Positions 3,081 through 39,565 of a stretch of 40,824 nucleotides of DNA are shown here, piece after piece. The stretch comes from a virus (lineage: Duplodnaviria; Heunggongvirae; Uroviricota; Caudoviricetes): positions 1 to 40,824 of IMG/VR virus record IMGVR_UViG_2563366969_000004, one strand, 5' to 3'. The position numbers were made by a program, and so were the translations under genes. The first letter of the stretch is position 1. Every line of letters begins with the position of its first letter. Below the pieces are notes generated by a model. It saw only the letters and a program-made list of their open reading frames with translations. It ran no database searches and had not been told where the DNA came from.

Positions 3081-3361
3081 ACTTTCTCCTGTTTACTATC
3101 TATAAGCCAGTCAATTATTGATGACTAAACCCGCATAGTAAACCATATATGAATCATTATTGTTCCGTATCATATATCTCAATAAAAGTACTAATGATTT
3201 TACAGAACGAGCCAGCAGAGTGGGGGCAGTTGTACAGGAACCATAGACTTAATTTTGTATTTAATAATGCTATGGTGTAATAAACCTGAACATGTATTTA
3301 AAATACGTACTGATTCATGATAGAATTCAAAGATAACTTTTCACAAACTCCGTTTTTGATA

Positions 3362-6506: not shown

Positions 6507-6610
6507 GTTAAATCTCCAGATAGTCGCAGCACCCGTTGCGCCGCATATCTGGTTATTCTATTACCTGGAAAACCACATATGGATAGAAAGGCTGTAAATA
6601 CGAATAGATA

Positions 6611-6625
6611 TTACCTTTCAGGTAA
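6611..6625. promoter_or_regulatory. TTACC-N5-GGTAA palindrome (putative repressor operator), copy A
   Basis: ATTACCtttcaGGTAAT perfect inverted repeat upstream of small antirepressor-like gene. Confidence 0.5.
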
Positions 6626-6701: not shown

Positions 6702-6959
6702 ATGCAGCAGTATCACTATCCACTGGAAGACGGATTTACCGAAAGGATTCACACGCCGGGAGGCGTCAGGTCACTGGTGGAGGGATCGCACTTGATGAAA
6801 TTACTCCGGGATCTCGATAAGGATGGATTTAATGTCGATGGCCCACTTGCCGAACTGACTGCACTGATTAACTACGTCACCAGCTCACAGATGTCTATGC
6901 AGGATCTGCAAACACATCTCGACTATTGTGCCGAACAATTACGAAAACAAACCCGGTAA
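6702..6959 (+). CDS. Small protein (85 aa) homologous to C-terminal domain of the Bro-N protein at 8108..8818; candidate SOS-inducible antirepressor
   Basis: ATG at 6702 with SD GGAG 8 nt upstream (the six-frame ORF start at 6684 is TTG); roughly 40 percent identity by eye over about 70 aa to residues about 165-236 of the Bro-N protein; LexA box on its promoter. Confidence 0.6.
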   Translation: MQQYHYPLEDGFTERIHTPGGVRSLVEGSHLMKLLRDLDKDGFNVDGPLAELTALINYVTSSQMSMQDLQTHLDYCAEQLRKQTR

Positions 6960-6965: not shown

Positions 6966-6983
6966 AGGCCGCAAGAGCGGCCT
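6966..6983. terminator. Hairpin between convergent genes (terminator-like)
   Basis: AGGCCGC-aaga-GCGGCCT; same stem sequence recurs at 9642..9659. Confidence 0.4.
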
Positions 6984-7838: not shown

Positions 7839-7929
7839 ATTTACATCGCACTCCTCTTGTGCCATAGTAATCGGGCACTGGCAAAATCCAGTGCCGGGAT
7901 TGGCGTCCCGGGTTACTAAGTGGCGCATA

Positions 7930-7951
7930 CCACGCCAGACGTGGTTTTTTT
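7930..7951 (+). terminator. Rho-independent terminator/attenuator upstream of Bro-N gene
   Basis: CCACG-ccaga-CGTGG followed by T7; preceded by two further hairpins (7874..7895, 7895..7911). Confidence 0.5.
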
Positions 7952-8107
7952 ATGCGTTAAGCACAGCTATATCCGAATTATGGTGGGCTGGGCAGGGGTC
8001 CGAAAGGACGCCGGTACCACTTAGGCCGGTACGCCAACCTTGTCCAGTTCACCACCAGTAATTGGCGTTGCGGTGGTGATTAAAATCACTAAGTGGAGAT
8101 AACCACC

Positions 8108-9633: not shown

Positions 9634-9659
9634 TAAAAACAAGGCCGCGAAAGCGGCCT
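9634..9659 (-). terminator. Rho-independent terminator for minus-strand small membrane gene
   Basis: AGGCCGC-gaaa-GCGGCCT with T-run on minus strand. Confidence 0.55.
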
Positions 9660-9671
9660 GTGACATGTCAC
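9660..9671. repeat. 12-bp perfect palindrome GTGACATGTCAC, copy 1
   Basis: Exact match; abuts terminator hairpin; overlaps stop codon of 9668..9964 gene. Confidence 0.7.
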
Positions 9672-21361: not shown

Positions 21362-21411
21362 ATACACTCCTGCAATAAAGGGGCCGAAGCCCCTTGTCGG
21401 ATTCGCGAGGC

Positions 21412-26139: not shown

Positions 26140-26229
26140 ATCAATGACTCCGTACGCAATTAAATTATTACCAATTTAACCACATATGATTTATTTATCG
26201 TAGAAGGTTGACATTTAACGCGTTAATTA

Positions 26230-26244
26230 TTACCTTTCAGGTAA
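26230..26244. promoter_or_regulatory. TTACC-N5-GGTAA palindrome, copy C
   Basis: ATTACCtttcaGGTAAC; TTGACA hexamer at 26208..26213 just upstream; about 320 bp upstream of tRNA. Confidence 0.5.
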
Positions 26245-26566: not shown

Positions 26567-26643
26567 GTGGCATTAGCTCAGTTGGACAGAGCAACCGCCT
26601 TCTAAGCGGTTGGTCGCAGGTTCGAATCCTGCATGCCACGCCA
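26567..26643 (+). tRNA. tRNA-Arg (anticodon UCU), phage-encoded
   Basis: Cloverleaf folded by hand: acceptor GTGGCAT/ATGCCAC, D-arm GCTC/GAGC, anticodon stem ACCGC/GCGGT with loop CTTCTAA, T-arm GCAGG-TTCGAAT-CCTGC, discriminator G and encoded CCA. Confidence 0.9.
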
Positions 26644-26728: not shown

Positions 26729-26806
26729 ACAGCAGGACGCCATTGCGATGACTTCATGCTGTAAACCAGTACAGCCACGGAAGGCATAACTCATTGCTTC
26801 CAGTTC

Positions 26807-26840: not shown

Positions 26841-27263
26841 ATGAAGACAATTGATATGTTGGCTAAGTATCTAAATGAATGGCCATTAAAATATTCTCGT
26901 ATCGTTCAGGCTGAAGACTGCATTTTTTATGGCGTTTTTGCTGGTAATGAAATGCATTACGAAGTAATTCAGAGTGAGGGACTGGCCGGGTTAACTCTTA
27001 GCGAAGACCATGGTACTAGCGTTACGTACCATGACTGGATTTCAGCGCAGAAAACTGAAATGGAAAAAGGCAATGTGTTTGATATTTCTCGCGCTGTATA
27101 CGCCAAAGAAAAAAGTGATGATGATTACATGCGCGAAAACTTATACAACATGAAGTTACAATGCCTGGCTGAAGTGCTTAGTAAAAGATCTTTACTTGAT
27201 GTGGTTGGTGCTGAGCAGGACGCCAAGGCAATCAACGCCGCATTCGATAAAATAACCTTCTAA
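26841..27263 (+). CDS. Hypothetical protein (140 aa), moron between terminase and portal
   Basis: SD AAGGTGAG upstream of ATG; AT-rich by eye; opposite strand to flanking late genes; own terminator. Confidence 0.6.
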   Translation: MKTIDMLAKYLNEWPLKYSRIVQAEDCIFYGVFAGNEMHYEVIQSEGLAGLTLSEDHGTSVTYHDWISAQKTEMEKGNVFDISRAVYAKEKSDDDYMRENLYNMKLQCLAEVLSKRSLLDVVGAEQDAKAINAAFDKITF

Positions 27264-27267
27264 CGCC

Positions 27268-27279
27268 GTGACATGTCAC
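27268..27279. repeat. 12-bp perfect palindrome GTGACATGTCAC, copy 2
   Basis: Exact match 5 nt after stop of 26841..27263 gene and 5 nt before terminator hairpin. Confidence 0.7.
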
Positions 27280-27284
27280 AATCA

Positions 27285-27308
27285 GCCCGCCGATTCGCGG
27301 GCTTTTTT
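27285..27308 (+). terminator. Rho-independent terminator
   Basis: GCCCGC-cgattc-GCGGGC followed by T6; overlaps stop of large terminase gene. Confidence 0.65.
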
Positions 27309-28782
27309 ATGCAAAAGGATCATAGTCTGTGATGGCTTTGCCTTGCTGGTTCTGCTGCCCGGGAATTCGCAGACGCTTCGACACAGGGAACGCAAACGTC
27401 AGCAGTAGCGCATCGCCTTTACCAGGAGAACGCCCAAGTCGCTCTTTGATATCTTCCTTCGGTTCGATAACGATTTTACCGTCCACGCGAACTTTGTACT
27501 CTGCCGTCGACAGGTCGTCCGCTGTTTCCTGGTCATCCAGCATGCCGCCGAGCCTCAGCCATGTCTTGCATGAGTTGAACATCTCCCCACGCTTGTTGAG
27601 CATCTGCGGGTCAGTAGACGCGCCACCGAACGGAACAAGTTGCCATGTACGACCCCAGCCGTCACCGATTGACTTCAAACCGGTTCCGTAACCGAAGTCG
27701 ATGAACACCGCGTCAGCCTGATACTGGTCTTCAAAGTCAGCGATACGCTTCGCCATAATCAGATCGTCGGTAGTCTTGTTGCCAGTCCACAGCACCTTAC
27801 TGTGTAGCCCCTGCCGCAGGTATATCACCGCGTCATCAACGCCGGAGTATGCCGGGTCAACGCCGATTATCACCGGAGCATGTGCCACCTGCGCAGCGGT
27901 TACCACCCGTTTCATTGCCTCGTCAGTAAGACCGGTAGGGATAAACTGCAATTCAGATGCATCAGGGAATATGCCGCGCACACGGATTTTAACGAAGTCG
28001 CTGTCTTCCCCGTAGTCATCAACCCATTTCTGCAACTGCTGTTTGTTAGTGCCTTCCACCGTTCGGCTGTCAATCTGCGCAGTTTTCCAGCGGTGTTTAT
28101 ATTTGCGGAAACATTCGCGGAAACGTCCGGTATTACGCGTCGGGTTTCCGAACGCCACCCAGATAATCTCAGTGTCTTCGTCCGTTAGTGCACCCTCGGC
28201 AACTTCCCACACCAGATCCGCAATGTTCGACGCTTCATCGAATACCACGATGATGCGTTTGCGCTCGTTGTGTAGTCCGGCGAATGCCTCAGTGTTGTGC
28301 TCAGACCAGGGGATTGCGTCAGCTCGCCACCGCTTGTCGTGTCCAGGATCATTGCTGTACATCGCGGTAGCGGTACAGGTAAACCAGTCTTTCGTGATAG
28401 CAAGGTTCGACCACTTGATAATTTCCGGCCAGGTCTTCGTTCGTAGCTGGTTGTCGGTGTTGGCGGTCACCACAACCTTACAATCCTCGCAAGTGGACAT
28501 GCCCCAGTTGATCAGCATTGAGATGAATGCGGATTTACCAATACCGTGACCAGAAGCGCGTGCCAGCATAAGCGGCTGATAACGCGTCTCTGGATTCTGC
28601 AGGTGATCACGTATCTCTCGGAACGCATCGGCCTGCCACTGACGTGGACCGGTAGCATGTGCCAGTTCAGTCCCCTCTTCCCCCCAAGGGAACGCATAGA
28701 GGGCATAGCCAAGCGGATCGTGAGTGAACCCTGCAATATCTTCGATTAACTGCTCTTCAGGAGATAACGCTGCATCTGTCAC
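27307..28782 (-). CDS. Terminase large subunit
   Basis: 491 aa; Walker A-like GHGIGKS; C-terminal nuclease-type acidic motifs (VDPAYSGVDDAVI); directly downstream of small terminase. Confidence 0.85.
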   Translation of the reverse strand: MTDAALSPEEQLIEDIAGFTHDPLGYALYAFPWGEEGTELAHATGPRQWQADAFREIRDHLQNPETRYQPLMLARASGHGIGKSAFISMLINWGMSTCEDCKVVVTANTDNQLRTKTWPEIIKWSNLAITKDWFTCTATAMYSNDPGHDKRWRADAIPWSEHNTEAFAGLHNERKRIIVVFDEASNIADLVWEVAEGALTDEDTEIIWVAFGNPTRNTGRFRECFRKYKHRWKTAQIDSRTVEGTNKQQLQKWVDDYGEDSDFVKIRVRGIFPDASELQFIPTGLTDEAMKRVVTAAQVAHAPVIIGVDPAYSGVDDAVIYLRQGLHSKVLWTGNKTTDDLIMAKRIADFEDQYQADAVFIDFGYGTGLKSIGDGWGRTWQLVPFGGASTDPQMLNKRGEMFNSCKTWLRLGGMLDDQETADDLSTAEYKVRVDGKIVIEPKEDIKERLGRSPGKGDALLLTFAFPVSKRLRIPGQQNQQGKAITDYDPFA

Positions 28783-29384
28783 TGATTGCCATCCTGACGT
28801 TCTTTCAGTCTCTTCCTGGCTGCCGCTATGCGATCAGCAATTGTCACATTCACATTAACATCCAGGCGTTCTTTGAATGCATTGACATCGACGTGCTTAC
28901 CAATCAGTTCGAGGTTCTTCACCTTGTCAGGCCATTTAATTTTTTTGAGGATTGTCTCTATCGAATCCTCGTCCATGTTCATGATGGTCGATGACAGATC
29001 AAAGCCGCTAAGCGTAGTGCGCCAGATTTTCGGCCACTCGCGGATTGGCTTAAGGCTCCCATCGTCGTTGAGGATATCAATCACGTCCATCTGGTCGATC
29101 TCCACCAGGCGCATGAGAACGTAATCAGCACTGACGCGCATTCGTTTGTTGCGCTCCTCCATCAACTCGGCAATCCGTTTCTGAATGCGTTCATCGCGCA
29201 TCATGACACTGGCTTTAACTGCCGCTGTATTTGGGGAGAATCCTGCATTAATCGCAGCCTGAGTCTGATTTTCAGGCGTTTTGATGTATGACTGGCAATA
29301 AGCCTCCTGCATTGCTGTTAGTGGCTTAAATTGCGTTGATTTGCGTTTATAGGTTTTAGGTTCAGCAGGCATCATAACCACCAT
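28779..29384 (-). CDS. Terminase small subunit (Terminase_2-like)
   Basis: LTAMQEAYCQSYIKTPENQTQAAINAGFSPNTA matches conserved N-terminal HTH of the small-terminase family; start uncertain (in-frame ATGs at 29384, 29375, 29372; the six-frame ORF starts at TTG 29453). Confidence 0.65.
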   Translation of the reverse strand: MVVMMPAEPKTYKRKSTQFKPLTAMQEAYCQSYIKTPENQTQAAINAGFSPNTAAVKASVMMRDERIQKRIAELMEERNKRMRVSADYVLMRLVEIDQMDVIDILNDDGSLKPIREWPKIWRTTLSGFDLSSTIMNMDEDSIETILKKIKWPDKVKNLELIGKHVDVNAFKERLDVNVNVTIADRIAAARKRLKERQDGNQ

Positions 29385-29449
29385 GGTAATAGTTACCGTT
29401 GTGGTAATAGTACCATGCAAAATAAAGCCGCCATAGTTGGCGGCAGTAT

Positions 29450-29662
29450 TCAAAGTCCATCAAATTCATCGTAAAAACTCTCGTCAAGATACCCTTCCCA
29501 TTTACCGCGAATGAAAATTACATCCTCGCCGCAAGGGTGCTGACTGTCGATAACTATATCCCTCCTGGCGCAACCATACTTATGCATGAGAAATTTAACC
29601 TCTTTCGGAAAATTTGCTGAGTTATCTCTCATATCTTCAAGGTCGTAGCGTATTTTTGGCAT
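29450..29662 (-). CDS. Small hypothetical protein (70 aa)
   Basis: ATG at 29660..29662 (complement) with SD GAAGGTG; palindrome copy 3 lies just upstream. Confidence 0.4.
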   Translation of the reverse strand: MPKIRYDLEDMRDNSANFPKEVKFLMHKYGCARRDIVIDSQHPCGEDVIFIRGKWEGYLDESFYDEFDGL

Positions 29663-29671
29663 AACACCTTC

Positions 29672-29683
29672 GTGACATGTCAC
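29672..29683. repeat. 12-bp perfect palindrome GTGACATGTCAC, copy 3
   Basis: Exact match immediately upstream of the SD of 29450..29662 gene and overlapping the end of 29680..30021 gene. Confidence 0.7.
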
Positions 29684-30021
29684 ACTATTAATTTCGTTTC
29701 ATGCCAGCCTTTAGTCACCCAGCATTGCGAGTCACCATTACACGGGCATGAATTAACGGGAACTCTCTCGCCGCACTTACCGCAAAGTTTTCTGCTGATC
29801 GATTTTATACGCCCGCGCACACGTGCATCATCCTGGCGGATCAGCAGCGCGATGTACTCGGCCATTTCATAGGGATCGTGACCAGGGCGCCGGGCGGCGC
29901 AGTTCCGCGCCAGCATTTCCTGCTCCTGCTTATCCAGCACCAGTTCAATTTTGCGCTCACCGGCGGCGGACTGCCGAGCGCGCTGCGCGGCTTTGCGCTC
30001 TGCTGCTGATTTAGCCATCAA
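29680..30021 (-). CDS. Hypothetical protein with C-terminal zinc ribbon; possible regulator
   Basis: 113 aa; basic N-terminus, C-terminal CGKCG...CPC cysteine cluster; last small gene before terminase genes. Confidence 0.45.
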   Translation of the reverse strand: MMAKSAAERKAAQRARQSAAGERKIELVLDKQEQEMLARNCAARRPGHDPYEMAEYIALLIRQDDARVRGRIKSISRKLCGKCGERVPVNSCPCNGDSQCWVTKGWHETKLIV

Positions 30022-30292
30022 TATTCACCTTTATAGCGAACACCTTTACCGGTTTATCGCCGAAGTGCGGATGTGTGATTGTCTTGATTTCATATCCGTC
30101 ATACGGGACGTCAATTCTGCGGCTGGAATCGTCGCGCTTCGGATATCCCTTTGTGATAATCAGGCGGTCATACTCGCGGAACATAATTCGCTTATTCCAG
30201 TAGTCATTGCACAGGCGATACTCTTCCGTTTTCTCTCCGCGAATCATGGCATCGAAGTATTCACCTTTAACGGCAAGTTGCAGGTTAGCCAC
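30011..30292 (-). CDS. ASCH/DUF3850-like small protein
   Basis: 93 aa; MANLQLAVKGEYFDAMIRGEKTEEYR resembles N-terminal pattern of ASCH-fold phage proteins; assignment from memory. Confidence 0.4.
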   Translation of the reverse strand: MANLQLAVKGEYFDAMIRGEKTEEYRLCNDYWNKRIMFREYDRLIITKGYPKRDDSSRRIDVPYDGYEIKTITHPHFGDKPVKVFAIKVNIDG

Positions 30293-30572
30293 GACCTTCC
30301 TCCTTTGGCTTGTGAATTTGTATCGTCATGCCGCTTTGAGTGGTGACTACAACGACAGAACCAGGCTGAAGACTGTTAAGATTGAATGCTTCGTAAAACG
30401 AAGCCAAGGCCAGCGCTTTTTTATTCTTTCGGTTCCACCAACGCCATCCATTGCTACAGGCTACACTGACAATCCACTGTCCACTCCTGTAAGCCATATA
30501 AAACCAGATGAGCAAAACCTGAATGAATGCTATCCAGTCAATAATCGTATATTTCGCGAAGGAGACCATCAA
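30285..30572 (-). CDS. Small membrane protein, unknown function
   Basis: 95 aa with N-terminal hydrophobic helix, Trp-rich. Confidence 0.4.
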   Translation of the reverse strand: MMVSFAKYTIIDWIAFIQVLLIWFYMAYRSGQWIVSVACSNGWRWWNRKNKKALALASFYEAFNLNSLQPGSVVVVTTQSGMTIQIHKPKEEGRG

Positions 30573-31294
30573 TTAACCTCCTGCGGCGGTTCCGGTAGAG
30601 GCATCCAGTACAAGGCGTTCCCTAACCACGATAAAGTGCCGTCGCTCAACTCCACGTATTCCCCTTGTACCTGTCCTGCCATATACTCGCCGTGCTTTGA
30701 ATAAATTAAAATCCAATCATCTTGAGCGGGCATTCGCTCACTACAGCTTATCCAACCATCCGGAGTTACCGGATAGTTGCCAGCCTGAACAGTAGGCATA
30801 TCAGGACCTTTGCGAATCGCCCTGGCAAGATCGATTGGGTCGTCGTACAACCAGTCACCTGTTTGCGGATGATTGGCTTCTGCCAATTGTGCAGCCCACT
30901 CCAGGCCGTCTTTGTGTCCTTGCAGATAGTCCAGCGGTAACTCATCACTATTACTTACAGGTTCGGCTTCCAGTTCTGCAATGCGCTTCTCTGCAGCTTC
31001 CAGCTCAACACGCAGCTTCTCAAGCGTTAGAGCCATCTCCATGTTCTCTTCCAGCAGTTCAATCACATCAGGATCGCTATCATCAACTACTGTTATGCGC
31101 GATTTTTTGTAATGCTCGTCAGCATAAGTTCGTCCAGTTTTGAAGCATCCGTCGTCCTCCATGCCGGAACAGGCATAAACAACATGTGATCCAGATATGC
31201 GCTGCATTGACATTTCCTCGCCACAAACAGAGCATTTAGGCGCTGGTTTCGGTGAAAAACGTTCACGTAACGTCTGATAGTAAAGCTCGCTCAC
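30569..31294 (-). CDS. Ea22-like protein with N-terminal zinc ribbon and C-terminal DUF551-like domain
   Basis: GTG start at 31292..31294 (complement) preceded by perfect SD AAGGAGG and overlapping upstream stop (GTGA); CSVCG...C..C ribbon; coiled coil; C-terminal ...YWMPLPEPP typical of DUF551. Confidence 0.55.
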   Translation of the reverse strand: MSELYYQTLRERFSPKPAPKCSVCGEEMSMQRISGSHVVYACSGMEDDGCFKTGRTYADEHYKKSRITVVDDSDPDVIELLEENMEMALTLEKLRVELEAAEKRIAELEAEPVSNSDELPLDYLQGHKDGLEWAAQLAEANHPQTGDWLYDDPIDLARAIRKGPDMPTVQAGNYPVTPDGWISCSERMPAQDDWILIYSKHGEYMAGQVQGEYVELSDGTLSWLGNALYWMPLPEPPQEVN

Positions 31295-31839
31295 TGGCTG
31301 CCTCCTTTGCGAATCTGTTCCGCCCATTCTTCAAGGGATTTCTCCGCATATTCACCGGACAGGCCATCAATCGGGTGCGGTTCATTAGCCAACTCTTCTT
31401 TCGCTGACAGAATCATGCGTGTAACGTCGAAAACTTCACGTAAAGACTTATTGATAAATCCGTGGTTGAAAGCAGCAGCAAGACGGCTTGCGGTATAGTT
31501 AATCCCCTCGTTGCGAGCCTCCGCACGAATTTCAGCCAGAAAAGCATCGGTGGCTGGAGTTTCGCTGTGGTGCAGGGCATCGTTGATAATCATTGCAGCA
31601 ACTCCGGCCTGCCCTGCATCCGTGACCGACACATGCTCAAGAGTTACAGCCATTGCATGTTTCAGCCCCGCATTCTCCACAGCCAGCGCATTAGCACGCA
31701 CCAGTTGCACTTCCAGTTGCGTTGCCAAATCGCTGATCAGCTTTGCCACACTGCGCATATCAACGGCACCACATTCTGCTTTCAGTTCCGAAGCCATCTC
31801 ATGCCCGGCGGCAACTAACCCTTTGATATTACTTTCCAT
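31291..31839 (-). CDS. Hypothetical protein (nin-like region)
   Basis: 182 aa, acidic helical protein. Confidence 0.45.
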   Translation of the reverse strand: MESNIKGLVAAGHEMASELKAECGAVDMRSVAKLISDLATQLEVQLVRANALAVENAGLKHAMAVTLEHVSVTDAGQAGVAAMIINDALHHSETPATDAFLAEIRAEARNEGINYTASRLAAAFNHGFINKSLREVFDVTRMILSAKEELANEPHPIDGLSGEYAEKSLEEWAEQIRKGGSQ

Positions 31840-31900
31840 CTTTACCCTCGCTTATCCACATAACTTATTGATTACATTGATAACTAAAAAGATCGTCGAT

Positions 31901-32248
31901 TCAGAACTCTTCGATGTTCCAGCCACCACCTGCTTTCTTTGGTTTAACCGTTACCCCGATGATTCGGAACGGATACTGATCTGCGGCGACTTTGGTTTTC
32001 ACCCTGGCGTCGTCGGTCCAGAATCCCCCTTTCACTTCGTGCAGCTCCATCTCGCCGGTGGCGAGCATCACAGCAAAATCGGGCGTATAGAACGTGTTGT
32101 CAGCTAACCGCAGCTTGATACCCTCAAATCGATACCAGACGATTTCTCCTGCACGTTTACGCATCTCAAGGTGCTGGCAATACGCAGATTCTGTTTTGTT
32201 CATCTGGCCTGTTTTGAGTCGACCAAGAGCCTGTATCTGTTTTCTCAT
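31901..32248 (-). CDS. DUF1064-like phage protein
   Basis: 115 aa; pattern ...YTPDF...E.HEVKG...K.K resembles DUF1064 family; assignment from memory. Confidence 0.45.
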   Translation of the reverse strand: MRKQIQALGRLKTGQMNKTESAYCQHLEMRKRAGEIVWYRFEGIKLRLADNTFYTPDFAVMLATGEMELHEVKGGFWTDDARVKTKVAADQYPFRIIGVTVKPKKAGGGWNIEEF

Positions 32249-32251
32249 GAT

Positions 32252-32266
32252 TTACCTCTGAGGTAA
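32252..32266. promoter_or_regulatory. TTACC-N5-GGTAA palindrome, copy D
   Basis: TTACCtctgaGGTAA immediately upstream of DUF1064 gene start. Confidence 0.5.
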
Positions 32267-32313
32267 TTAAAAACCACATAAGACACGAAATCAATAGAGT
32301 TTAGAATATTTTG

Positions 32314-32328
32314 TTACCCAACAGGTAA
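32314..32328. promoter_or_regulatory. TTACC-N5-GGTAA palindrome, copy E
   Basis: TTACCcaacaGGTAA between P-like gene stop and DUF1064 gene. Confidence 0.5.
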
Positions 32329-32365
32329 CTATCAAGACATAAAAAAATGCGCTATCGCGCTGGTA

Positions 32366-33142
32366 TTACTTGATAAATCCTGCCGCCTTTCCCCGCCTGT
32401 ATTCCTCCATCAGCCACTGCGCCGGTGTTATTCCCCCCAGGGTGGCGGCGTTAGGCATGCACCCGAAACTTCGCCCTAGCGGGTGGTAAACGTCTCTCCC
32501 TGTGTCCGGAGGCGTACTCATGGGTTCTGGCTTTGCCTGTATGCTGATCACCGGATCGGGTATCTGCTGTCCGGAAGCCACCTTTTTCGCCCAATCATCG
32601 AGCAGCCTGCGCGCGTGTTTCTCAACCTCAATCTCGCTAAGCTGGCGCTGATACATTGCACGGCGGGTATCACATACGACCCAGTACATAACCGGATGCC
32701 GCCACGGGAATCTTTCGGGACCACCAGGATATAAACTTTTTTCCTTGCTGTACCGGTGAAACTCCGCCATCACATCGTCAATGGTGACGCCAAGAACCAT
32801 CTTGCTGTCTTTACACCACTTGATGAATTGCCCTGGCGACGGCCAGAACGGAGACTCACTGGCGCGGGCGTGGCGCATACCAGCGTTAACCTGTTCCATT
32901 GTAGTGATCCCATTCTCCAGAAACGCAAGCATCCATTGCTTACGGAATTCATTAAGTTTGTTCTGCTCCCTTATGGTCGAAACGCTTGCAGGAAATGCAG
33001 CCTGTAACTGGACAAATAGTTCATTGAAAATTCTAGCGACCTGCTCCTTTTTGCCATTGCTGTCACGCCGCTCTTCATGCACAGCAACACCATACTCACG
33101 TAAGCGATCGTACTCATTGAGAAGTTCTGGAGTTGATTTCAT
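32366..33142 (-). CDS. Replication protein P-like (helicase loader)
   Basis: Segments FLENGITTMEQVNAGMRHAR and FWPSPGQFIKWC closely resemble the conserved core of lambda P family as I recall it. Confidence 0.75.
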   Translation of the reverse strand: MKSTPELLNEYDRLREYGVAVHEERRDSNGKKEQVARIFNELFVQLQAAFPASVSTIREQNKLNEFRKQWMLAFLENGITTMEQVNAGMRHARASESPFWPSPGQFIKWCKDSKMVLGVTIDDVMAEFHRYSKEKSLYPGGPERFPWRHPVMYWVVCDTRRAMYQRQLSEIEVEKHARRLLDDWAKKVASGQQIPDPVISIQAKPEPMSTPPDTGRDVYHPLGRSFGCMPNAATLGGITPAQWLMEEYRRGKAAGFIK

Positions 33143-33944
33143 CCCACACCCCTTCTATCCAGTCAGTGTTATTCCAGTCAAGCTCATCGCTTTTCCCGAC
33201 GTTTTTTGATTTTCCCCTGATATGATTTACGTGCCTGGCGAATTTTTGTTCCCACTGAACCTGCGTGAACACTTTGCCCTCAGCCATCCAGTAATCCCGG
33301 AATGCAGCAAGTTCAGCAGGTGTAAATTCCGGTTCCGGCAGGGCCGTTCCCCACAGCGCAGCACGCCGTCGAAAATCCGGCGACGGATGCCAGCCATCGG
33401 TCATCGGAAATTTCCCAATAGGTTCACTCAGGCCATCCAGAAATGCAGGTTCTGCCACCTGCAACGGCGTACCGTTCGCTTCACTGGTCGGAGCACCCTC
33501 GCGCACGTGCGCTATGTGTGGGGTTTTATATATATCTTCCTCTTCCTCTTCCTCTGGTAACTCCTTTTGTAACGCTGTTGGCGTTACTTTTTGCGTTACT
33601 CGTTTTCGATGCTCTGCCACTCTTCTATTCGTAAGTGCACGTTTTTTCGATGATTCTCCATTATGTCGCTCAAAGTTTGGAAGAATTAGTTTGCCGTCAT
33701 GATAAGCAAGCCATCCGACGCTAATGAGGGCGTCAGCAAATCCTGTAATAAAAGCGAGTCTATCAAGTACTCCTTTTGTAACGCTGCCAGCGTTACCGTC
33801 TATTGTTTGCTGGTCAGCCCATGCCCATATACGAACCAGCTTTCCAAGAACAGCATCTGGATCAATACCCAGAATTTCTGCTATCTGAAAAATTTCAGGT
33901 TTATCAGGAGTGATAACTTCAACCTTAATCCAGCTGCTTGCCAT
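33114..33944 (-). CDS. Replication initiator / replisome organizer (lambda O-like role) with DnaT-like C-terminal region
   Basis: ATG 33942..33944 (complement) with SD GAGGGG; acidic EEEEEE linker; iteron-like DNA repeats inside the gene; immediately upstream of P-like gene. Confidence 0.6.
   Translation of the reverse strand: MASSWIKVEVITPDKPEIFQIAEILGIDPDAVLGKLVRIWAWADQQTIDGNAGSVTKGVLDRLAFITGFADALISVGWLAYHDGKLILPNFERHNGESSKKRALTNRRVAEHRKRVTQKVTPTALQKELPEEEEEEDIYKTPHIAHVREGAPTSEANGTPLQVAEPAFLDGLSEPIGKFPMTDGWHPSPDFRRRAALWGTALPEPEFTPAELAAFRDYWMAEGKVFTQVQWEQKFARHVNHIRGKSKNVGKSDELDWNNTDWIEGVWDEINSRTSQ
33560..33599. repeat. Iteron-like repeat 1 inside initiator gene (putative origin)
   Basis: ACTCCTTTTGTAACGCTG-ttg-GCGTTAC plus extra GCGTTAC half site; palindromic arms GTAACGC/GCGTTAC. 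Confidence 0.5.
33769..33796. repeat. Iteron-like repeat 2 inside initiator gene (putative origin)
   Basis: ACTCCTTTTGTAACGCTG-cca-GCGTTAC; same 18-nt core as repeat 1 but read in a different codon frame. Confidence 0.5.
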
Positions 33945-34137
33945 AGGTTTCCCCTCTTGCACTCTTTAGTGCACAAGCAAATTCATTACGATGGCGGTTG
34001 GCGCTATTCATTGCACATTCAACACATGTTCCGTTCAGAACATACCTTTCAGAGAGATGGCCGTGACGGCACCGCTTTCCTGTGAAATAGCGATTTAACC
34101 CGGCTTTTGCGGCCTCCATTCTGGTTACTATCTTCAA
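33925..34137 (-). CDS. Small Cys/His-rich hypothetical protein
   Basis: 70 aa from TTG start with SD AGGGG (ATG alternative at 34117..34119); CRHGH...CVEC motif. Confidence 0.4.
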   Translation of the reverse strand: MKIVTRMEAAKAGLNRYFTGKRCRHGHLSERYVLNGTCVECAMNSANRHRNEFACALKSARGETYGKQLD

Positions 34138-34215
34138 TTTTTCCGCCCCTTTTTGTTATTGATATTGGCTATTTTGCACAATTGGAAAATTTGATCAACC
34201 AGATTTGGTTTTTTA

Positions 34216-34230
34216 TTACCTTTGAGGTAC
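34216..34230. promoter_or_regulatory. Imperfect TTACC-N5-GGTAC palindrome
   Basis: ATTACCtttgaGGTAC just downstream of the terminator that follows the Cro-like gene. Confidence 0.35.
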
Positions 34231-34240
34231 GAATAGATAT

Positions 34241-34263
34241 GAAAAGACCGCCGGGTGGCGGTC
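34241..34263 (-). terminator. Rho-independent terminator after Cro-like gene (tR1-like position)
   Basis: On minus strand GACCGCC-accc-GGCGGTC followed by TTTTC. Confidence 0.55.
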
Positions 34264-34285
34264 TACAGAGGGTTGTAGCTGGATA

Positions 34286-34516
34286 TCATGAGTAGAAGAA
34301 GTATGCCAGTTCTGCTTTTGAGCGCAGCCATTGTCTTGTTTTACAGGCTTTAAAAAGCCCATTCATCAATACCTTACCTGGCATTTTGCGCTTGCCTGTT
34401 AAGTGAGTCTGGATATAGTGACTCGTCGTTCCGGCTTCCTGTGCGAAGGCTTCACGCTCATCCGGAGTAAGTGCAAGCCAGTGCTTTTTGAAATCGAAAT
34501 GTCCGTTATCGCTCAT
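34286..34516 (-). CDS. Cro-like HTH regulator
   Basis: 76 aa; HTH-like segment EAFAQEAGTTSHYIQTHLTGKRKMP; divergent from CI-like gene across operator-rich 154-bp region. Confidence 0.6.
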   Translation of the reverse strand: MSDNGHFDFKKHWLALTPDEREAFAQEAGTTSHYIQTHLTGKRKMPGKVLMNGLFKACKTRQWLRSKAELAYFFYS

Positions 34517-34583
34517 AGCTATTGCCTGATATTTATTTCAGATAATAAATATTCACCCATAAGGTAACAAAAATCAAGGATGG

Positions 34584-34598
34584 TTACCTATGAGGTGC
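34584..34598. promoter_or_regulatory. Imperfect TTACC-N5-GGTGC palindrome (OR-like region)
   Basis: TTACCtatgaGGTGC, 2 bp from next copy. Confidence 0.35.
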
Positions 34599-34600
34599 AT

Positions 34601-34615
34601 TTACCTGTTGGGTAA
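34601..34615. promoter_or_regulatory. TTACC-N5-GGTAA palindrome (OR-like region)
   Basis: TTACCtgttgGGTAA between divergent Cro-like and CI-like genes. Confidence 0.55.
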
Positions 34616-34670
34616 TATTGCTTTAAATTGAATCATCTACTGATTCATATATGAGGCGATTTTCCAGAAA

Positions 34671-35255
34671 ATGAAAAGTATCCAGGACGTCCGCAGGCAA
34701 AATCTCAACGACTTGATCGACCGTGAATTCAATGGTGTTCAGACGCGGATGGCAGAAAAACTTGGAACTCAGGCAAATCTGGTAAACCGCTGGGCTCTTG
34801 GCAAGAAGGTTATCGGCGACCAGGTTGCGCGAAAAATTGAAGCTGCCGCCAATAAACCCCGTAACTGGCTTGATATCGATCGCTCGCTTTCTCAGGAAGG
34901 TTTTCAGCCTGTCGGCCCAAGCGACATTGGTCAGCTGGCGGCTCACAACCTGGAACGCTGGATGAGCGAAAGCCGCGACCTTTCAACACAGGGAAAACTT
35001 CACCGCGCATCCGGCGTCGCCCAGGTGACAATCAGCCGCCTGTTAAACAATGAGGTCAGCGTTTCCATTTCCACCCTGGAGAATGTTGCATCCGCATTCG
35101 GGCGTCACGGATATGAACTACTGATTCACCCGCACGACCCTGCGACTATCAACTATGACCGCTCACGCTACGCATTGTTACCCGAAACCGAGAAAGCAAA
35201 GATCGAAAGTTACATTGAATTTGTCATCAACCAGAACGAAAAAAGCAAACAATAA
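34671..35255 (+). CDS. CI-like prophage repressor with two HTH (XRE-type) segments, no S24 peptidase domain
   Basis: 194 aa; HTH-like QTRMAEKLGTQANLVNRWALGKK and SGVAQVTISRLLNNEVSVSISTLENVA; no Ser-Lys autocleavage module recognisable; no SD within 10 nt of ATG; strong terminator follows. Confidence 0.6.
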   Translation: MKSIQDVRRQNLNDLIDREFNGVQTRMAEKLGTQANLVNRWALGKKVIGDQVARKIEAAANKPRNWLDIDRSLSQEGFQPVGPSDIGQLAAHNLERWMSESRDLSTQGKLHRASGVAQVTISRLLNNEVSVSISTLENVASAFGRHGYELLIHPHDPATINYDRSRYALLPETEKAKIESYIEFVINQNEKSKQ

Positions 35256-35275
35256 AACTATATTTTTCAGTAAGT

Positions 35276-35299
35276 AAGCCGCCTCATGGCGGCTTTTTT
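35276..35299 (+). terminator. Rho-independent terminator after repressor gene
   Basis: AAGCCGCC-tcat-GGCGGCTT followed by T6. Confidence 0.65.
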
Positions 35300-35312
35300 A
35301 TTGCCATCAAGA

Positions 35313-35327
35313 TTACCTTATGGGTAA
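35313..35327. promoter_or_regulatory. TTACC-N5-GGTAA palindrome (OL-like region)
   Basis: TTACCttatgGGTAA. Confidence 0.55.
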
Positions 35328-35374
35328 TTTTTTTAACTCATATCTATTGACATCAAACCAAATACGCATAATCA

Positions 35375-35389
35375 TTACCTCAACGGTAA
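35375..35389. promoter_or_regulatory. TTACC-N5-GGTAA palindrome (OL-like region)
   Basis: TTACCtcaacGGTAA about 20 bp upstream of small ORF start. Confidence 0.55.
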
Positions 35390-35408
35390 CAAGCCGAGGT
35401 AACAAGTT

Positions 35409-35561
35409 ATGCAGTGGAAAATCATCAACGGTTGGTACTGCGTTACTGCATGCGGATTCATGAGCTGGAAGTTCCGCACCTTACAGGAAGGCATCAAGTG
35501 GGCTTTCGTCAGCAAAGAAGCTCGCGATGTGGCAAACGATAACGAGATATGGGAGGGCTGA
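35409..35561 (+). CDS. Small ORF (50 aa), first gene of early-left operon
   Basis: ATG with SD GAGGT; not in supplied ORF track (below size cut-off); hand translated to a TGA stop at 35559..35561. Confidence 0.35.
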   Translation: MQWKIINGWYCVTACGFMSWKFRTLQEGIKWAFVSKEARDVANDNEIWEG

Positions 35562-35563
35562 TA

Positions 35564-35863
35564 ATGAACGTTAATCAGCAGAAAAATCTTCAAAAAATCA
35601 TGCTGGCATTCGACAAGGACTACCGCCTGTCAGAACAGCTATATGACCGACAAGTTGAACTGATTGAGAGCATCCGACTTCATCAACTGTCCTCAACTTT
35701 CGACGTTGTAACAGGCAAAGGCGTTCGTCAGGAAGTGCTGGAGGCTGCTAAAGACAGCCCTGAGTTCGAAGAACTGATGGATGCCTACCGGCGCGAGGCA
35801 ATGGCAATTATCGCCCGCTGGGATCTGGCGGATCAGCTTGATGGACAGAGGGACGCGGCATGA
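35564..35863 (+). CDS. Hypothetical early protein
   Basis: ATG 35564 with SD GGGAGGG; stop overlaps start of exonuclease gene (ATGA). Confidence 0.5.
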   Translation: MNVNQQKNLQKIMLAFDKDYRLSEQLYDRQVELIESIRLHQLSSTFDVVTGKGVRQEVLEAAKDSPEFEELMDAYRREAMAIIARWDLADQLDGQRDAA

Positions 35864-36681
35864 ATCCGGGAATTTATTTCGATATCAGCAACGAAGACTA
35901 CCACGCCGGTGACGGCGTGAGTAAGTCGCAACTGGACATGGTTGCCAAGAATCCGGCGCTTCTTAAATGGGTTCAGGCAGCACCAGAAGACGAAGAGAAA
36001 AAGTCTGCACTGGATATGGGAACCGCATTGCACTGTCTGCTTCTGGAGCCTGGAGAGTTCGACAAACGCTTCATTGTTTCACCGAAATTCGATCGTCGGA
36101 CGAAACAAGGTAAAGCTGACGAAGAGGCATTTCTTCGTGATGTGGCGGATATGGGGATTACGGTACTTGATGCCGAGCAGTGGCGGAAACTGGAGCTGAT
36201 GCGTGATAGCGCAATGGCTCACCCGGCGGCACGCTGGATGTTGGAAGCACCTGGTTACTGCGAAGCGTCAATGTACTGGAACGATGAAGAAACGGGTGAG
36301 TTGTGCCGAATTCGTCCAGACAAATGGCTGAACGAGCACAACGTGATCATCGACGTGAAAAAGGTTGCAGATATGGACCGTTTTGCACGTCACATCGAGG
36401 AATTCCGCTACCACGTGCAGGACGCAATGTACCGCGAAGGCGCAATGAGGGTTACTGGTCAGCCGCATGGTTTTTTCTTTCTTGCCGTGAGCGAAAGCAT
36501 TGATTGTGGTCGGTATCCGGTACGCGTGTTCGAGCTGGATGCGCCGGATGTCGATGCCGGGCACGCTCTGTTCCGCCGGGATCTGAATACCTATCACGAA
36601 TGCCGCATCAACGATGAGTGGGGCGGAGTGGAAATTATTAAACGCCCTGACTGGGCACGTAAACAGGATATGTACGTATGA
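35860..36681 (+). CDS. PD-(D/E)XK exonuclease (RecE-like short form), partner of RecT-like protein
   Basis: 273 aa; acidic/Lys motif region ...RIRPDKW...IIDVKKV...; translationally coupled (ATGA) to downstream annealing protein gene. Confidence 0.65.
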   Translation: MNPGIYFDISNEDYHAGDGVSKSQLDMVAKNPALLKWVQAAPEDEEKKSALDMGTALHCLLLEPGEFDKRFIVSPKFDRRTKQGKADEEAFLRDVADMGITVLDAEQWRKLELMRDSAMAHPAARWMLEAPGYCEASMYWNDEETGELCRIRPDKWLNEHNVIIDVKKVADMDRFARHIEEFRYHVQDAMYREGAMRVTGQPHGFFFLAVSESIDCGRYPVRVFELDAPDVDAGHALFRRDLNTYHECRINDEWGGVEIIKRPDWARKQDMYV

Positions 36682-37559
36682 GCAATGATATCGCAATCAC
36701 ATCACAACCAGGCGCAACTGTAGGCACTGCTGCGGCAATCTTCAGCCCCGAGGGAATGAATCAACTGGTGCGTTTCGCTGAGTTGATGTCACAAAGCAAA
36801 GCGACTGTACCGAAACATCTTGAAGGCAAACCTGCCGATTGCCTGGCGGTGACCATGCAGGCGGCACAGTGGGGAATGAACCCTTTCGCCGTGGCGCAGA
36901 AAACGCATGTGGTAAACGGAACGTTAGGCTACGAAGCACAGTTGGTAAACGCGGTCGTATCCTCGTCAAGCCTGCTGGCGACACGCCTGAATTATCGCTG
37001 GAGCGGTGACTGGTCGAATGTTAACGGCAAAACAGATAAATCACCGAATCTGACGGTAACTGTGTCAGCAGTTCTTAAAGGAGAAGCAGAACCACGTGAG
37101 CTTACCATCAGTATGGCGCAAGCCGGAGTGCGTAACTCTCCATTGTGGGAACAGGATCCTCGCCAGCAGCTTGCCTATCTTTGCACGAAACGATGGGCTC
37201 GCCTGCACGCTCCTGATGTACTTCTCGGTGTTTACACCCCTGACGAATTACAGGAAACGGCACCGCGCGTTGAACGAGACATTACTCCGCAAACAACTAC
37301 TGCTGCGGGAATGAACAGTCTGATCAACGCTAAACCAGTGAAAAAGCCTGATGAGCAAACGCGTAAAGCGGATAGCCGTGATCCAGAAGAAATGCTGATG
37401 GCCTTTACCAGCGCAGCGATGAATTACAGCACTGTCTCCGAACTGGATAAGGCTTACAAATACATTGCACAAAAACTTTCAGATGATGACGAACTGCTGG
37501 CAAAAGCAACCGACGTTTACAGCGTTCGTCGGGAAGAATTAAACGAAACATCTATGTAA
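36678..37559 (+). CDS. RecT-like single-strand annealing protein
   Basis: 293 aa; central region CLAVTMQAAQWGMNPFA resembles RecT family core; gene order exonuclease then annealing protein. Confidence 0.6.
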   Translation: MSNDIAITSQPGATVGTAAAIFSPEGMNQLVRFAELMSQSKATVPKHLEGKPADCLAVTMQAAQWGMNPFAVAQKTHVVNGTLGYEAQLVNAVVSSSSLLATRLNYRWSGDWSNVNGKTDKSPNLTVTVSAVLKGEAEPRELTISMAQAGVRNSPLWEQDPRQQLAYLCTKRWARLHAPDVLLGVYTPDELQETAPRVERDITPQTTTAAGMNSLINAKPVKKPDEQTRKADSRDPEEMLMAFTSAAMNYSTVSELDKAYKYIAQKLSDDDELLAKATDVYSVRREELNETSM

Positions 37560-37608
37560 CCACCACCGCGGCGCCACACGCGCCGCACTGCAACCAAGAG
37601 AGGTATTT

Positions 37609-37857
37609 ATGAAAGGTGCATTAGGTAAGAAGGAACTCCTGGCGGTGGTGCCACTGTCATGGAGCACTATCGACCGTATGGAGCGCGCAGGGGAATTTCC
37701 TAAACGCTGGTATATCACTGACAAACGCTGCGCATGGAACCGTGACGAAGTTGAGCGTTGGCTTGATGAACGTCAGGCAGCAAGTCCGGCAGAGTTCCAG
37801 GGTAAAAAACCTCCTGTTCAGCAACGTGTATATCGTCCCGTGAGCAACGCTGCATGA
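37609..37857 (+). CDS. AlpA-family HTH regulator / excisionase candidate
   Basis: LSWSTIDRMERAGEFPKRWYI...WNRDEVERWL matches AlpA pattern; SD GAGG. Confidence 0.75.
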   Translation: MKGALGKKELLAVVPLSWSTIDRMERAGEFPKRWYITDKRCAWNRDEVERWLDERQAASPAEFQGKKPPVQQRVYRPVSNAA

Positions 37858-37966
37858 GTGCGCTGCTAAGGCACTGGAGCAAATGGTCAGGATGGTACTT
37901 ATTCCTGGCCTCTGTTTCAGCATGGCTTTATCTGCTGGCATTAATTTTCAGAGAGGGTTGGATTAA

Positions 37967-38266
37967 GTGAGAAAGTTAAGCCGACTTGAAAAATATCACA
38001 TGAATAAGGTTTCAATGCGTAGTCCGTCAAAGATTGTCGCCGTTACTCCTGCGGCGATAGAGATCGAAAAACGCGCGATTGAAAGAGAAAAAAAAGGGCA
38101 GTTCCGCATTGCCGCTCACCTTTGGCTTCAGTGTATGGATGTTGCTTCTGGTGATGTTGAGCGAGCAAGGATTGCGGTTCGCAGGGACCAATGTATCACA
38201 AAAGGTAACGGCCTTCGCCGTGGCGACTATAGCGGCATAGGATGTTGTGGGGTGGTTTATGACTAA
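37967..38266 (+). CDS. Small hypothetical protein (possible small regulator)
   Basis: GTG start with SD GAGAGGG; 99 aa; overlaps methyltransferase start by 8 nt. Confidence 0.4.
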   Translation: MRKLSRLEKYHMNKVSMRSPSKIVAVTPAAIEIEKRAIEREKKGQFRIAAHLWLQCMDVASGDVERARIAVRRDQCITKGNGLRRGDYSGIGCCGVVYD

Positions 38267-38909
38267 GAAATACACACTAATCTATGCAGATCCACCCTGG
38301 GTATACCGGGACAAAGCCGCAGATGGTAATCGCGGTGCCGGTTTTAAATATCCGGTTATGAGTGTGCTTGATATCTGCCGCCTTCCTGTGTGGGATTTGG
38401 CCGATGAAAACTGTCTGTTGGCCATGTGGTGGGTGCCAACACAACCACTCGAAGCACTAAAAGTTGTTGAAGCCTGGGGATTCCGTCTGATGACCATGAA
38501 GGGCTTCACGTGGATAAAATGTGGTAGTCGACAACAAGATAAACTGGTTATGGGTATGGGTCACATGACTCGCGCCAATAGTGAAGATTGCCTGTTTGCA
38601 GTAAAGGGAAAACTACCTCCGCGCATTAATGCAGGGATCGTTCAGTCATTTACCGCACCGCGGCTTGAGCATTCAAGAAAACCAGATGTCGTTCGTGAAA
38701 AACTTGTGCAATTGTTAGGCGATGTTTCTCGCATTGAACTGTTCGCCCGCCAGTCGTCTCATGGCTTCGATGTTTGGGGTAATCAGTGCGAAGACCCGGC
38801 AGTGCAACTACACCCTGGATACGCGTTGGCTATTGGCGGATTAACAAATGCATTCAGCAATGCTCCGCTGTCACCAACAGACAACCAGGGGCGGGAGCGT
38901 TCAGCATGA
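38259..38909 (+). CDS. DNA N6-adenine methyltransferase, MT-A70 family (orphan)
   Basis: N-terminal IYADPPW motif; no adjacent restriction endonuclease gene. Confidence 0.8.
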
Positions 38910-39565
38910 ACCTATATCAACGCATCAATGGCGCTGACTGGTGCAATATCTTCGTCGTCGGCGATCTGCATGGGTGCTACACGCTGCTGATGAACGAACT
39001 CGACAAAGTTTCATTCGACCCGGCGCGCGATTTGCTTATTTCCGTTGGTGACCTTGTTGACCGCGGCGCTGAAAACGTCGAATGCCTGGATTTGATTACT
39101 ATGCCGTGGTTCCGAGCTGTTCGTGGCAACCATGAGCAGATGATGCTGGATGCACTGGTCAACGGCGGAAGTTTCGGACATTGGATGTCAAACGGCGGTG
39201 GATGGTGGCGCCAACTTGATTCTGAGCAGGATGTGCAACTCAAATACCTTCTGCCAAAGGTTACCAACCTCCCGATGATTATCGAACTGGTTACCGGCAA
39301 TAAGAAGGTCGTCATCTGCCACGCAGACTACCCCCACAACGAATACGCATTCGATAAGCCAGTACCGGAAGAAATGGTGATATGGAATCGTGAGCGGGTT
39401 AGCGACGCGCAGGACGGTATTGTCTCGGAGATAACCGGTGCCGATTTGTTCATCTTCGGTCATACGCCAGCACATCACCCACTAGTGTATGCAAACCAGA
39501 TGTACATCGACACCGGCGCAGTGTTCTGCGGAAATCTGACGCTTACCAAAGTCCAGGAAGGATAG
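38906..39565 (+). CDS. Ser/Thr protein phosphatase, lambda-type metallophosphatase
   Basis: GDLHG, GDLVDRG and GNHE motifs; ATG 38906 overlaps methyltransferase stop (ATGA) with SD GGGAG. Confidence 0.85.

Follow-up and report, generated by a model that had tools for sequence, protein, structure and literature searches.

Temperate phages of the epsilon15/SPC32H type (genus Uetakevirus) are common as prophages in E. coli, including enterohaemorrhagic (EHEC) strains, and in Salmonella, Klebsiella and Citrobacter; the immunity switch of Uetakevirus, built from the repressor Rep and the antirepressor Ant, has been structurally solved. Work by Kim and Ryu in 2013 and by Kim et al. in 2016 is said to have established that the SOS response lifts LexA repression of Ant, which then strips Rep off the DNA. 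The DNA analysed here over its full length of 40,824 nucleotides (the window) is the IMG/VR virus record IMGVR_UViG_2563366969_000004, in which an earlier note had seen lambda-like intrinsic terminators and no recognisable N or Q antiterminator, had called late-gene control unresolved, and had sought the missing functions in three small open reading frames (ORFs) of 50, 70 and 113 amino acids (aa), the second with a 12-bp palindrome in its presumed promoter region; the ORFs and the palindrome are all present as it described them. Judged by its sequence, the window is a complete prophage of epsilon15/phiV10/SPC32H type with E. coli as the host group. In a nucleotide comparison positions 27000-36000 were 96-97% identical to Escherichia phages HEMP4, vB_EcoP_ZX5 and TL-2011b, the annotated gene order of these relatives is that of the window, and the region under study is typical for Uetakevirus.

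Profile scans of the ORFs from the repressor gene to terS and of those in the early-left operon against Pfam, PHROGs and NCBIfam gave no match of any early ORF to an N or Q family, which bears out the absence of N- and Q-like proteins reported from the sequence. A literature search on late-gene control in this phage group found no paper, in agreement with the earlier note. The premise that lambda-like functions must be hidden in the small ORFs is not supported: the phage is not lambdoid in its control logic, which is of the epsilon15/SPC32H type with operators dispersed at unit heads. We propose instead, with confidence that is about evenly balanced, a repressor-gated lytic programme of multiple units that dispenses with an N/Q-style antitermination cascade. 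The lytic genes would fall into about eight units (early-left, cro, replication, nin-like through the 113-aa gene, terS-terL, portal-to-tail, tailspike and lysis), set apart by intrinsic terminators or convergent plus-strand morons, and Rep would occupy a 15-bp operator at nearly every unit head, including the ribosome-binding site of terS, so that a single repressor would directly silence early and late genes alike. On induction Rep would be removed by the LexA-controlled antirepressor, and the portal, tailspike and lysis units would then depend on promoter-like elements of their own that need a phage-made activator, which would create the early-to-late delay. For terS-terL, partial or regulated read-through from the early-right operon is most likely, since no late-unit element of the type described below precedes terS and the gene lies behind a good terminator. 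The 113-aa protein, acting on the palindrome, probably modulates transcription across unit boundaries, the scheme taking no side on whether it raises or lowers it.

The dispersed operators, which the earlier note had missed, share a core TTACC-N5-GGTAA with the sites of the right (OR) and left (OL) operator regions. In the window 14 sites fit this core with one mismatch or none (0.7 expected), and an 8-base operator core occurs exactly 11 times as compared to 0.23 expected for the whole window. The operators and promoters, with the genes that they adjoin, are as follows.

35409 to 39565, plus strand: early-left operon, with the 50-aa and 104-aa proteins, exonuclease and RecT; its further genes, also on the plus strand, encode AlpA-like, PerC-like, MT-A70 methylase and phosphatase proteins
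35313..35389: OL region, operators TTACCTTATGGGTAA (35313-27) and TTACCTCAACGGTAA (35375-89) flanking a PL-like promoter
35347-35375, plus strand: PL-like promoter, TTGACA-17-AATCAT
34671-35255, plus strand: repressor gene
34542..34615: OR region, operators at 34553-67, 34583-97 (2 mismatches) and 34601-15
34570..34542, minus strand: PR-like promoter, TTGTTA-17-TATTAT
34286..34516, minus strand: cro-like repressor gene, phrog_35
34216..34230: operator-like site heading the replication genes, just past the cro terminator; Tyrion counterpart at 35365
32314-28 and 32252-66: two operators between the P gene and the nin-like genes, 32252-66 overlapping the Shine-Dalgarno (SD) sequence of the first nin-like gene
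within 32252..32335, minus strand: promoter-like site TTGATA-16-CAAAAT between P and the nin-like genes
29393-407: operator TTACCACAACGGTAA between terminator and terS, 1 base off the OL copy
29375-89: degenerate second operator overlapping the SD sequence and start (ATG) of terS
28779-29372, minus strand: terS
27307-28782, minus strand: terL (terS and terL together 27307..29372)
26230-44: operator heading the portal unit
7731, 7824 and 8890: operators around the isrK/C4/ant module
6611-25: operator between ant and the tailspike gene

Beyond cro the remaining genes are all encoded by the minus strand, as far as the lysis genes at ~1.3-3 kb. In epsilon15 and in Enterobacter phage Tyrion operators are found at matching relative places despite diverged flanking DNA, and in lambda the pattern has zero occurrences. 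The operator core of epsilon15, ATTACC-N5-GGTAAT, is the same as that of the window, and its RefSeq record marks seven sites as 'protein_bind: repressor', among them sites before terS (12-27), gp3/portal, the tail fiber and nin (35906); operators dispersed over the unit heads are hence already annotated in epsilon15 and are not new. For the epsilon15 repressor an identity of only 42% is on record (PMC9782041), yet with the operator core unchanged the pair could not serve as a heteroimmune test of covariation between repressor and site. That Rep binds at the dispersed sites of the window is what this pattern suggests.

A second kind of element marks the heads of the late units. The window holds three copies of the sequence ATATRYGGTT (ATAT[AG][TC]GGTT), where 0.3 would be expected for the two strands together; 3/3 are in the late orientation, and each lies 40-65 nt ahead of the gene that opens the portal, tailspike or lysis unit. 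It is followed after 7 nt by a -10-like TAATAA, TAATAG or TATGAT, which gives the consensus ATATRYGGTT-N7-TAWNAN, and no -35-like hexamer was found ahead of these elements.

26178..26244, minus strand: head of the portal/head/tail unit, with operator 26230-44, ATATGTGGTT (26187..26178) and TAATAA 7 nt on
6571..6625, minus strand: head of the tailspike unit, with operator 6611-25, ATATGTGGTT (6580..6571) and then TAATAG/TAGAAT
3141..3150, minus strand: lysis-unit element ATATATGGTT, ~60 nt ahead of the first lysis gene, where there is no operator

The motif recurs at the same late-unit heads in epsilon15 and Tyrion, in both of which a block of ~60 nt at the portal-unit head is kept; terS has no such element. 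As these elements have no -35 hexamer they suggest a need for a phage-made activator, and we infer that they are putative activator-dependent late promoters, a motif that appears to be undescribed. A PerC-family protein encoded in the early-left operon (37967-38266, plus strand; Pfam PerC, E 6e-7; NCBIfam ANR_neg_reg below cut-off) is a possible candidate for a late activator. PerC-type proteins are activators of the locus of enterocyte effacement (LEE) in enteropathogenic E. coli (EPEC) and EHEC.

The units so defined are bounded by intrinsic terminators. Those noticed earlier behind the cro-like and repressor genes are borne out by sequence and by folding energy, and a third, directly ahead of terS, had been overlooked.

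34264..34245, minus strand: terminator after the cro-like gene, AGACCGCC-ACCC-GGCGGTCT followed by UUUUCAU (an interrupted U-run), tR1-like
35276..35295, plus strand: terminator after the repressor gene, AAGCCGCC-TCAT-GGCGGCTT, an 8-bp stem followed by UUUUUUAU
29444..29427, minus strand: third terminator, GCCGCCA-ACTA-TGGCGGC followed by TTTATTTT / UUUAUUUU, between the 70-aa ORF and terS
34245-64, 29427-44, 9642-59, 6966-83 and 1112-39: boundaries of minus-strand lytic units, formed by terminators or convergent plus-strand morons

Folding gave -15.0 kcal/mol (z = -4.7) for the cro terminator, which lies 22 nt past the cro-like stop codon and in which Tyrion has an A-to-G change that keeps the pairing as G-U, -21.1 kcal/mol (z = -5.7) for the repressor-gene terminator and -16.2 kcal/mol (z = -4.9) for that ahead of terS. 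The last is invariant in 73/73 related viral contigs with an extractable terS junction and is also present in epsilon15 and Tyrion, the epsilon15 record annotating its counterpart, after gp49, as a rho-independent terminator. No strong plus-strand terminator candidate was found in the early-left operon, so that nothing there needs N. Inside the head-tail unit, right behind the capsid and decoration genes, a GC-rich hairpin with a UUCG loop followed by UUUAUUG (~21375-21395, minus strand) probably serves as an attenuator and so determines how much capsid protein is made relative to tail proteins; epsilon15 has a bidirectional terminator annotated at the matching place.

The 113-aa protein belongs to the epsilon15 gp49/N15 gp46 family, and is predicted to have an N-terminal basic helix, a ribbon-helix-helix (RHH) core and a C-terminal Cys cluster, the predicted strand-helix-helix core agreeing with the best structural matches, which are RHH proteins. 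The family comprises ~145 clusters at 50% identity; neither Pfam nor NCBIfam has a model for it, and its members are named only 'hypothetical' or, generically, 'transcriptional regulator'. Alignment of 54 diverse members showed near-invariant R9 and R14 in the basic N-terminal helix and conserved Cys residues at 80, 83 and 100. A further homolog search with a five-sequence profile returned close relatives only, and scanning viral contigs with three distant family members yielded 0, 0 and 1 locus. The 113-aa gene is accompanied by the palindrome GTGACATGTCAC (12 bp), of which the window holds three exact copies, with 0.02 expected for GTGAC-N2-GTCAC; copies S2 and S3 had escaped the earlier note. 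Each of the three copies marks the end of a transcription unit.

29680..30021, minus strand: 113-aa protein gene, epsilon15 gp49/N15 gp46 family, phrog_536
29672..29683: palindrome copy S1, its positions 2-4 supplying the TGA stop for the 113-aa gene, with the ATG of the 70-aa ORF 9 nt on
29450..29662, minus strand: 70-aa ORF, phrog_1541, in the slot between S1 and the terminator
27268..27279: palindrome copy S2, directly behind terL, with 4 nt between it and the hairpin terminating the 140-aa moron of the plus strand
9660..9671: palindrome copy S3, carrying the TGA with which the last head-tail gene (gp18-like) ends, and abutting the terminator 9659..9642

The same three copies are found in epsilon15 (S2 at 2142, S3 at 19517) and in Tyrion (S2 at 2702, S3 at 20377). 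In five phage lineages, including epsilon15, N15, a Yersinia P2-like phage and Pantoea phage AH07, the palindrome lies on the family's own TGA stop in the same register. Among 21 further loci, which come from Citrobacter, Klebsiella, Erwinia, Pantoea, Yersinia and others, 15 have it begin one base before the TGA of the gene. The other genomes that encode the family carry 1-3 copies apiece, and lambda has no GTGAC-N2-GTCAC.

N15 (gp46): 38% identity to the 113-aa protein, 3 copies, one coinciding with the gene's own TGA
Yersinia P2-like phage: 43% identity, 1 copy, on the stop codon
Pantoea phage AH07: 58% identity, 2 copies, one of which covers the stop codon and precedes xis by 16 nt
Vibrio phage K253: 34% identity, 3 copies, one of them 19 nt before the terS ATG

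Of the additional copies in N15 (28550 and 33237) one is upstream of the terminator of the anti-repressor operon and one inside repA, and the additional copy of AH07 (34430) is inside its Q gene. The arms of the palindrome are invariant and its central two bases vary (AT, GC, TG/CA, CT/AG, AC), a pattern that points to a dimeric DNA-binding site and not to an RNA hairpin. A boxB-like RNA hairpin was likewise rejected as its stem would be only 4 bp and its arms never covary across families of 30-40% identity. We infer from their co-occurrence that the gp49 family binds GTGAC-N2-GTCAC, a pairing of protein family and stop-codon palindrome that appears to be undescribed; a full-text literature search for the palindrome sequence found no paper. 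Family and predicted site turn up in prophages of podo-, sipho- and myovirus type and also in N15, a linear plasmid prophage. Confirmation of the pair would bring phage annotation a new regulatory cassette and offer a handle on the insulation of modules and morons.

From these comparisons the palindrome is best seen as the conserved cis partner of the 113-aa gene rather than as a promoter element of the 70-aa gene. The earlier note had placed it in the promoter region of the 70-aa ORF; the copy in fact sits at a ribosome-binding site and gene end with no demonstrable promoter, a promoter-like GTGACA-17-TAAATT being found only in epsilon15 and Tyrion, and the palindrome is kept where the ORF is absent. 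Of a late-promoter layout of the lambda Q type, in which a binding element between -35 and -10 is followed by a terminator, the window has the terminator 29427-44; the palindrome ahead of it fits a promoter in those two phages only. The 70-aa ORF is missing from epsilon15, Tyrion and TL-2011b and from more than half of 78 related contigs, and the slot after S1 holds an 8-codon remnant in many relatives, nothing in epsilon15 and Tyrion, and a LexA box with a umuD-like gene in some. Because it is missing from so many relatives this ORF cannot be a core regulator; by sequence it is an optional moron and its candidacy for an N or Q function weakens, and the varying contents of the slot mark it as a hot spot for moron insertion. 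The 50-aa ORF (35409..35561, plus strand), the first early-left gene, belongs to phrog_898 and is like epsilon15 gp37. Neither it nor the 104-aa protein is Arg-rich, both match solely PHROGs of unknown function, and close to the 50-aa ORF, itself conserved, there is no RNA site; nothing supports it as an N-like candidate. The proposal that the 113-aa protein takes over a missing function fared better in part: it is a genuine regulatory candidate and not a simple substitute for Q, since members of its family are found beside Q in N15 and Pantoea AH07 and beside Ogr in the P2-like phage of Yersinia, and a family present in phages that already have Q or Ogr is not a generic Q replacement.

What the 113-aa protein would do at its sites can be read in opposite ways. 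It might be an autoregulatory repressor or roadblock that limits transcription out of the operon end, a 'gatekeeper' for whichever gene lies downstream (terS here, xis in Pantoea phages, morons elsewhere), with nothing but the release of Rep and the strengths of promoters and terminators governing the late genes. The predicted RHH fold, a site that overlaps the stop codon of its gene and is often followed 9-19 nt on by the next ATG, the variable morons that fill the slot behind it, and the spread of the family over unrelated phage types with late regulators of their own all fit such a role. It would leave unexplained copies S2 and S3 at the ends of late units and the intrinsic terminator behind the site, and a negative regulator of terS that is made early is counter-intuitive for lytic growth, so that we put this forward tentatively, as somewhat unlikely. 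Alternatively the protein could be a Q analogue that binds GTGACATGTCAC, loads onto passing RNA polymerase and brings about read-through into terS-terL, the terminators at unit ends being overridden late. Its gene is the last of the early-right operon and directly upstream of terS, which is the place of Q in lambda, and all three palindromes adjoin a hairpin or terminator: S1 is followed by a minus-strand terminator at 227 nt here, at 41 nt in TL-2011b and at 22 nt in epsilon15, S3 at 0 nt, and S2 is only 4 nt from the hairpin ending the plus-strand moron. The copy of Vibrio phage K253 just before terS is in keeping with this, and DNA-site-loaded antiterminators unrelated to Q exist, such as AlpA of P. 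aeruginosa, which has no homology to known antiterminators (PMC7969949). Against this stand the coexistence of the family with Q and Ogr, the gene start, and no terminator, that follows the palindrome in AH07, N15 and Pantoea/Erwinia prophages, the convergent gene, and not late genes, downstream of S2, the lack of a conserved promoter around the palindrome (GTGACA-17-TAAATT being absent from the E. coli phages), and the fact that RHH proteins are typically repressors; we therefore consider a Q analogue quite unlikely. Equally speculative, and in our estimation improbable, is the broader proposition that the gp49/N15-gp46 family is an unrecognised class of RHH/Zn boundary regulators, with the palindrome in their own stop codon, which in Uetakeviruses would act as a Q analogue opening the early/terS terminator and would also act at two other unit ends.

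Antitermination could also proceed with no protein signature, through an RNA that acts in cis, as put of HK022 does, or through a host factor. This would account for terminators that stand in the path of rightward transcription although N and Q are absent, and conserved blocks of ~60 nt do occur upstream of late units. These blocks follow terminators or operators, where promoters are expected, and do not lie directly after PL or PR. The leaders, as read from promoter and start-codon coordinates, measure ~27 nt for PL and ~19 nt for PR, which leaves no room ahead of the first genes for a nut RNA or for a structured put RNA of ~70 nt. There is no boxA near PL or PR, its count in the window being no higher than chance, and Rfam gave no match in 29-37 kb at E <= 1; a put-type RNA was judged by leader length and this Rfam scan, no put covariance model being used. 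We hold such a mechanism to be very improbable indeed. The AlpA-like protein of the early-left operon (37609-37857) was also considered as a Q-like antiterminator and rejected, as it matches the Pfam excisionase/regulator family Phage_AlpA and PDB 8c3t; it had no match at E <= 10 to entries named P. aeruginosa AlpA.

The repressor-gated programme that we favour has difficulties of its own. Its late-unit promoters are putative, with the -35 absent and the assignment of the -10 ambiguous, and no activator protein has been assigned to them. The terS gene is without a recognisable promoter and lies behind a -16 kcal/mol terminator, exactly where an antiterminator would be expected. Cro, if it acts on the same operators, could shut the late units too, and the model has no explanation for how this is avoided. 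Operators 6611, 7731 and 26230 stand between divergent genes, so that plus-strand genes (ant, the isrK/C4/ant module, the tRNA moron) may be their main targets instead of the late units; the operators at terS, nin and the replication unit are free of this ambiguity. Finally, the 113-aa family is placed very differently in other phage genomes and its role may be unrelated to late genes. These points weigh against the programme. What had been recorded as 'no N, no Q' can now be tested piece by piece, on a map of units gated by the repressor, a candidate motif for late promoters, and a regulator family with a predicted site.

The immunity switch that would gate these units is of a known kind. The repressor, of 194 aa, has two helix-turn-helix domains and no S24 peptidase domain and is a homolog of SPC32H Rep (PDB 5d50_A, E 3.5e-42).

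6702-6959, plus strand: antirepressor gene ant, 85 aa, homolog of SPC32H Ant (PDB 5d50_E, E 4.1e-47)
6665-80: perfect LexA box CTGTATAAATATACAG ahead of the 85-aa ant gene

As Rep and the LexA-controlled Ant are homologous to the chains of 5D50, the switch is of the known SPC32H type. The 85-aa ant gene diverges from the tailspike gene, and the operator at 6611-6625 is common to both. Beside it lies a second antirepressor module, in which Rfam identifies isrK (67.7 bits, gathering 50) and C4 antisense RNA (66 bits, gathering 45) at 7875-8059 on the plus strand; directly downstream is a gene for a KilAC-type antirepressor of 241 aa (8093-8818, plus strand), and operator-like sites are found at 7731 and 7824. 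Its sequence features mark isrK/C4/KilAC-type Ant as an antirepression module like immI of P1/P7, present in addition to the SPC32H-type Ant. The repressor gene had been described as lacking an SD sequence and hence as leaderless or weakly initiated. The former is borne out, the closest GAGG being ~15 nt ahead of the ATG at 34671 and thus not well placed; a leaderless transcript is unproven and was rejected, since no -10 hexamer occupies the required position.

Several neighbouring genes complete the layout, with the integrase at the right end of the window. A Cys/His-rich protein of 70 aa (33925-34137, minus strand; phrog_1081), the first gene past the cro terminator, occupies the position of cII and is kept in Tyrion and, as gp40, in epsilon15. 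A moron block that separates terL from the portal unit consists of tRNA-Arg(UCU) (26567-26643, plus strand) and a 140-aa protein (26841-27263, plus strand; phrog_4846) and has terminators of its own and a LexA-box-like CTGTAAACCAGTACAG at 26759-26774. A 242-aa protein (6982-7710, minus strand; phrog_6762), whose C-terminal region is akin to endonuclease VII, HNH and Lar zinc modules, is encoded in a small unit of its own with operator 7731 at its head and terminator 6983..6966 at its end.

With lambda the window shares the placing of the repressor and early-left genes on one strand and of cro, replication and late genes on the other, the terminators behind cro and the repressor gene, and a small regulator gene last before the late genes. 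It differs in lacking homologs of N and Q as well as boxA/boxB, in showing no clear PR'-like promoter with a binding element, in distributing its late genes over several units with their own repressor sites, and in a repressor which, without an S24 domain, is not cleavable and is inactivated by an antirepressor. The C1/C4-Ant/Lpa system of P1 is similar in that one repressor serves operators scattered genome-wide and an antirepressor is under the control of C4 antisense RNA, and P1 late promoters have a -10, no -35 and a conserved element in the spacer. Unlike in P1 the operator of the window is symmetric, and no window ORF is annotated as a C1 or Lpa homolog by PHROGs, Pfam or NCBIfam. The RinA/ArpU late activators of Gram-positive temperate phages (PMC3152322) resemble the 113-aa protein as small DNA-binding regulators encoded just upstream of terS in the absence of Q; there is no sequence similarity between them, the presumed site of the 113-aa protein is upstream of a terminator and not in a terS promoter, and its family also occurs away from terS. 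With RHH regulators such as Arc, Mnt, CopG, omega and the antitoxins of toxin-antitoxin systems the 113-aa protein would have in common the predicted strand-helix-helix core and a presumed site with short inverted half-sites, and it is set apart from them by the extra basic N-terminal helix with its near-invariant R9 and R14, by the C-terminal Cys cluster, and by a presumed site at the 3' end of its own gene instead of in its own promoter. The closest counterpart is epsilon15/SPC32H, which has the same gene order, a homologous Rep and LexA-controlled Ant, ATTACC-N5-GGTAAT heading the same units, the terminator that follows gp49 and three copies of GTGACATGTCAC, and from which the window is distinguished by the extra 70-aa ORF behind the palindrome, the tRNA-Arg moron, a lysis unit without an operator, and the second, P1-like module of isrK and C4 RNAs with a KilAC-type Ant.

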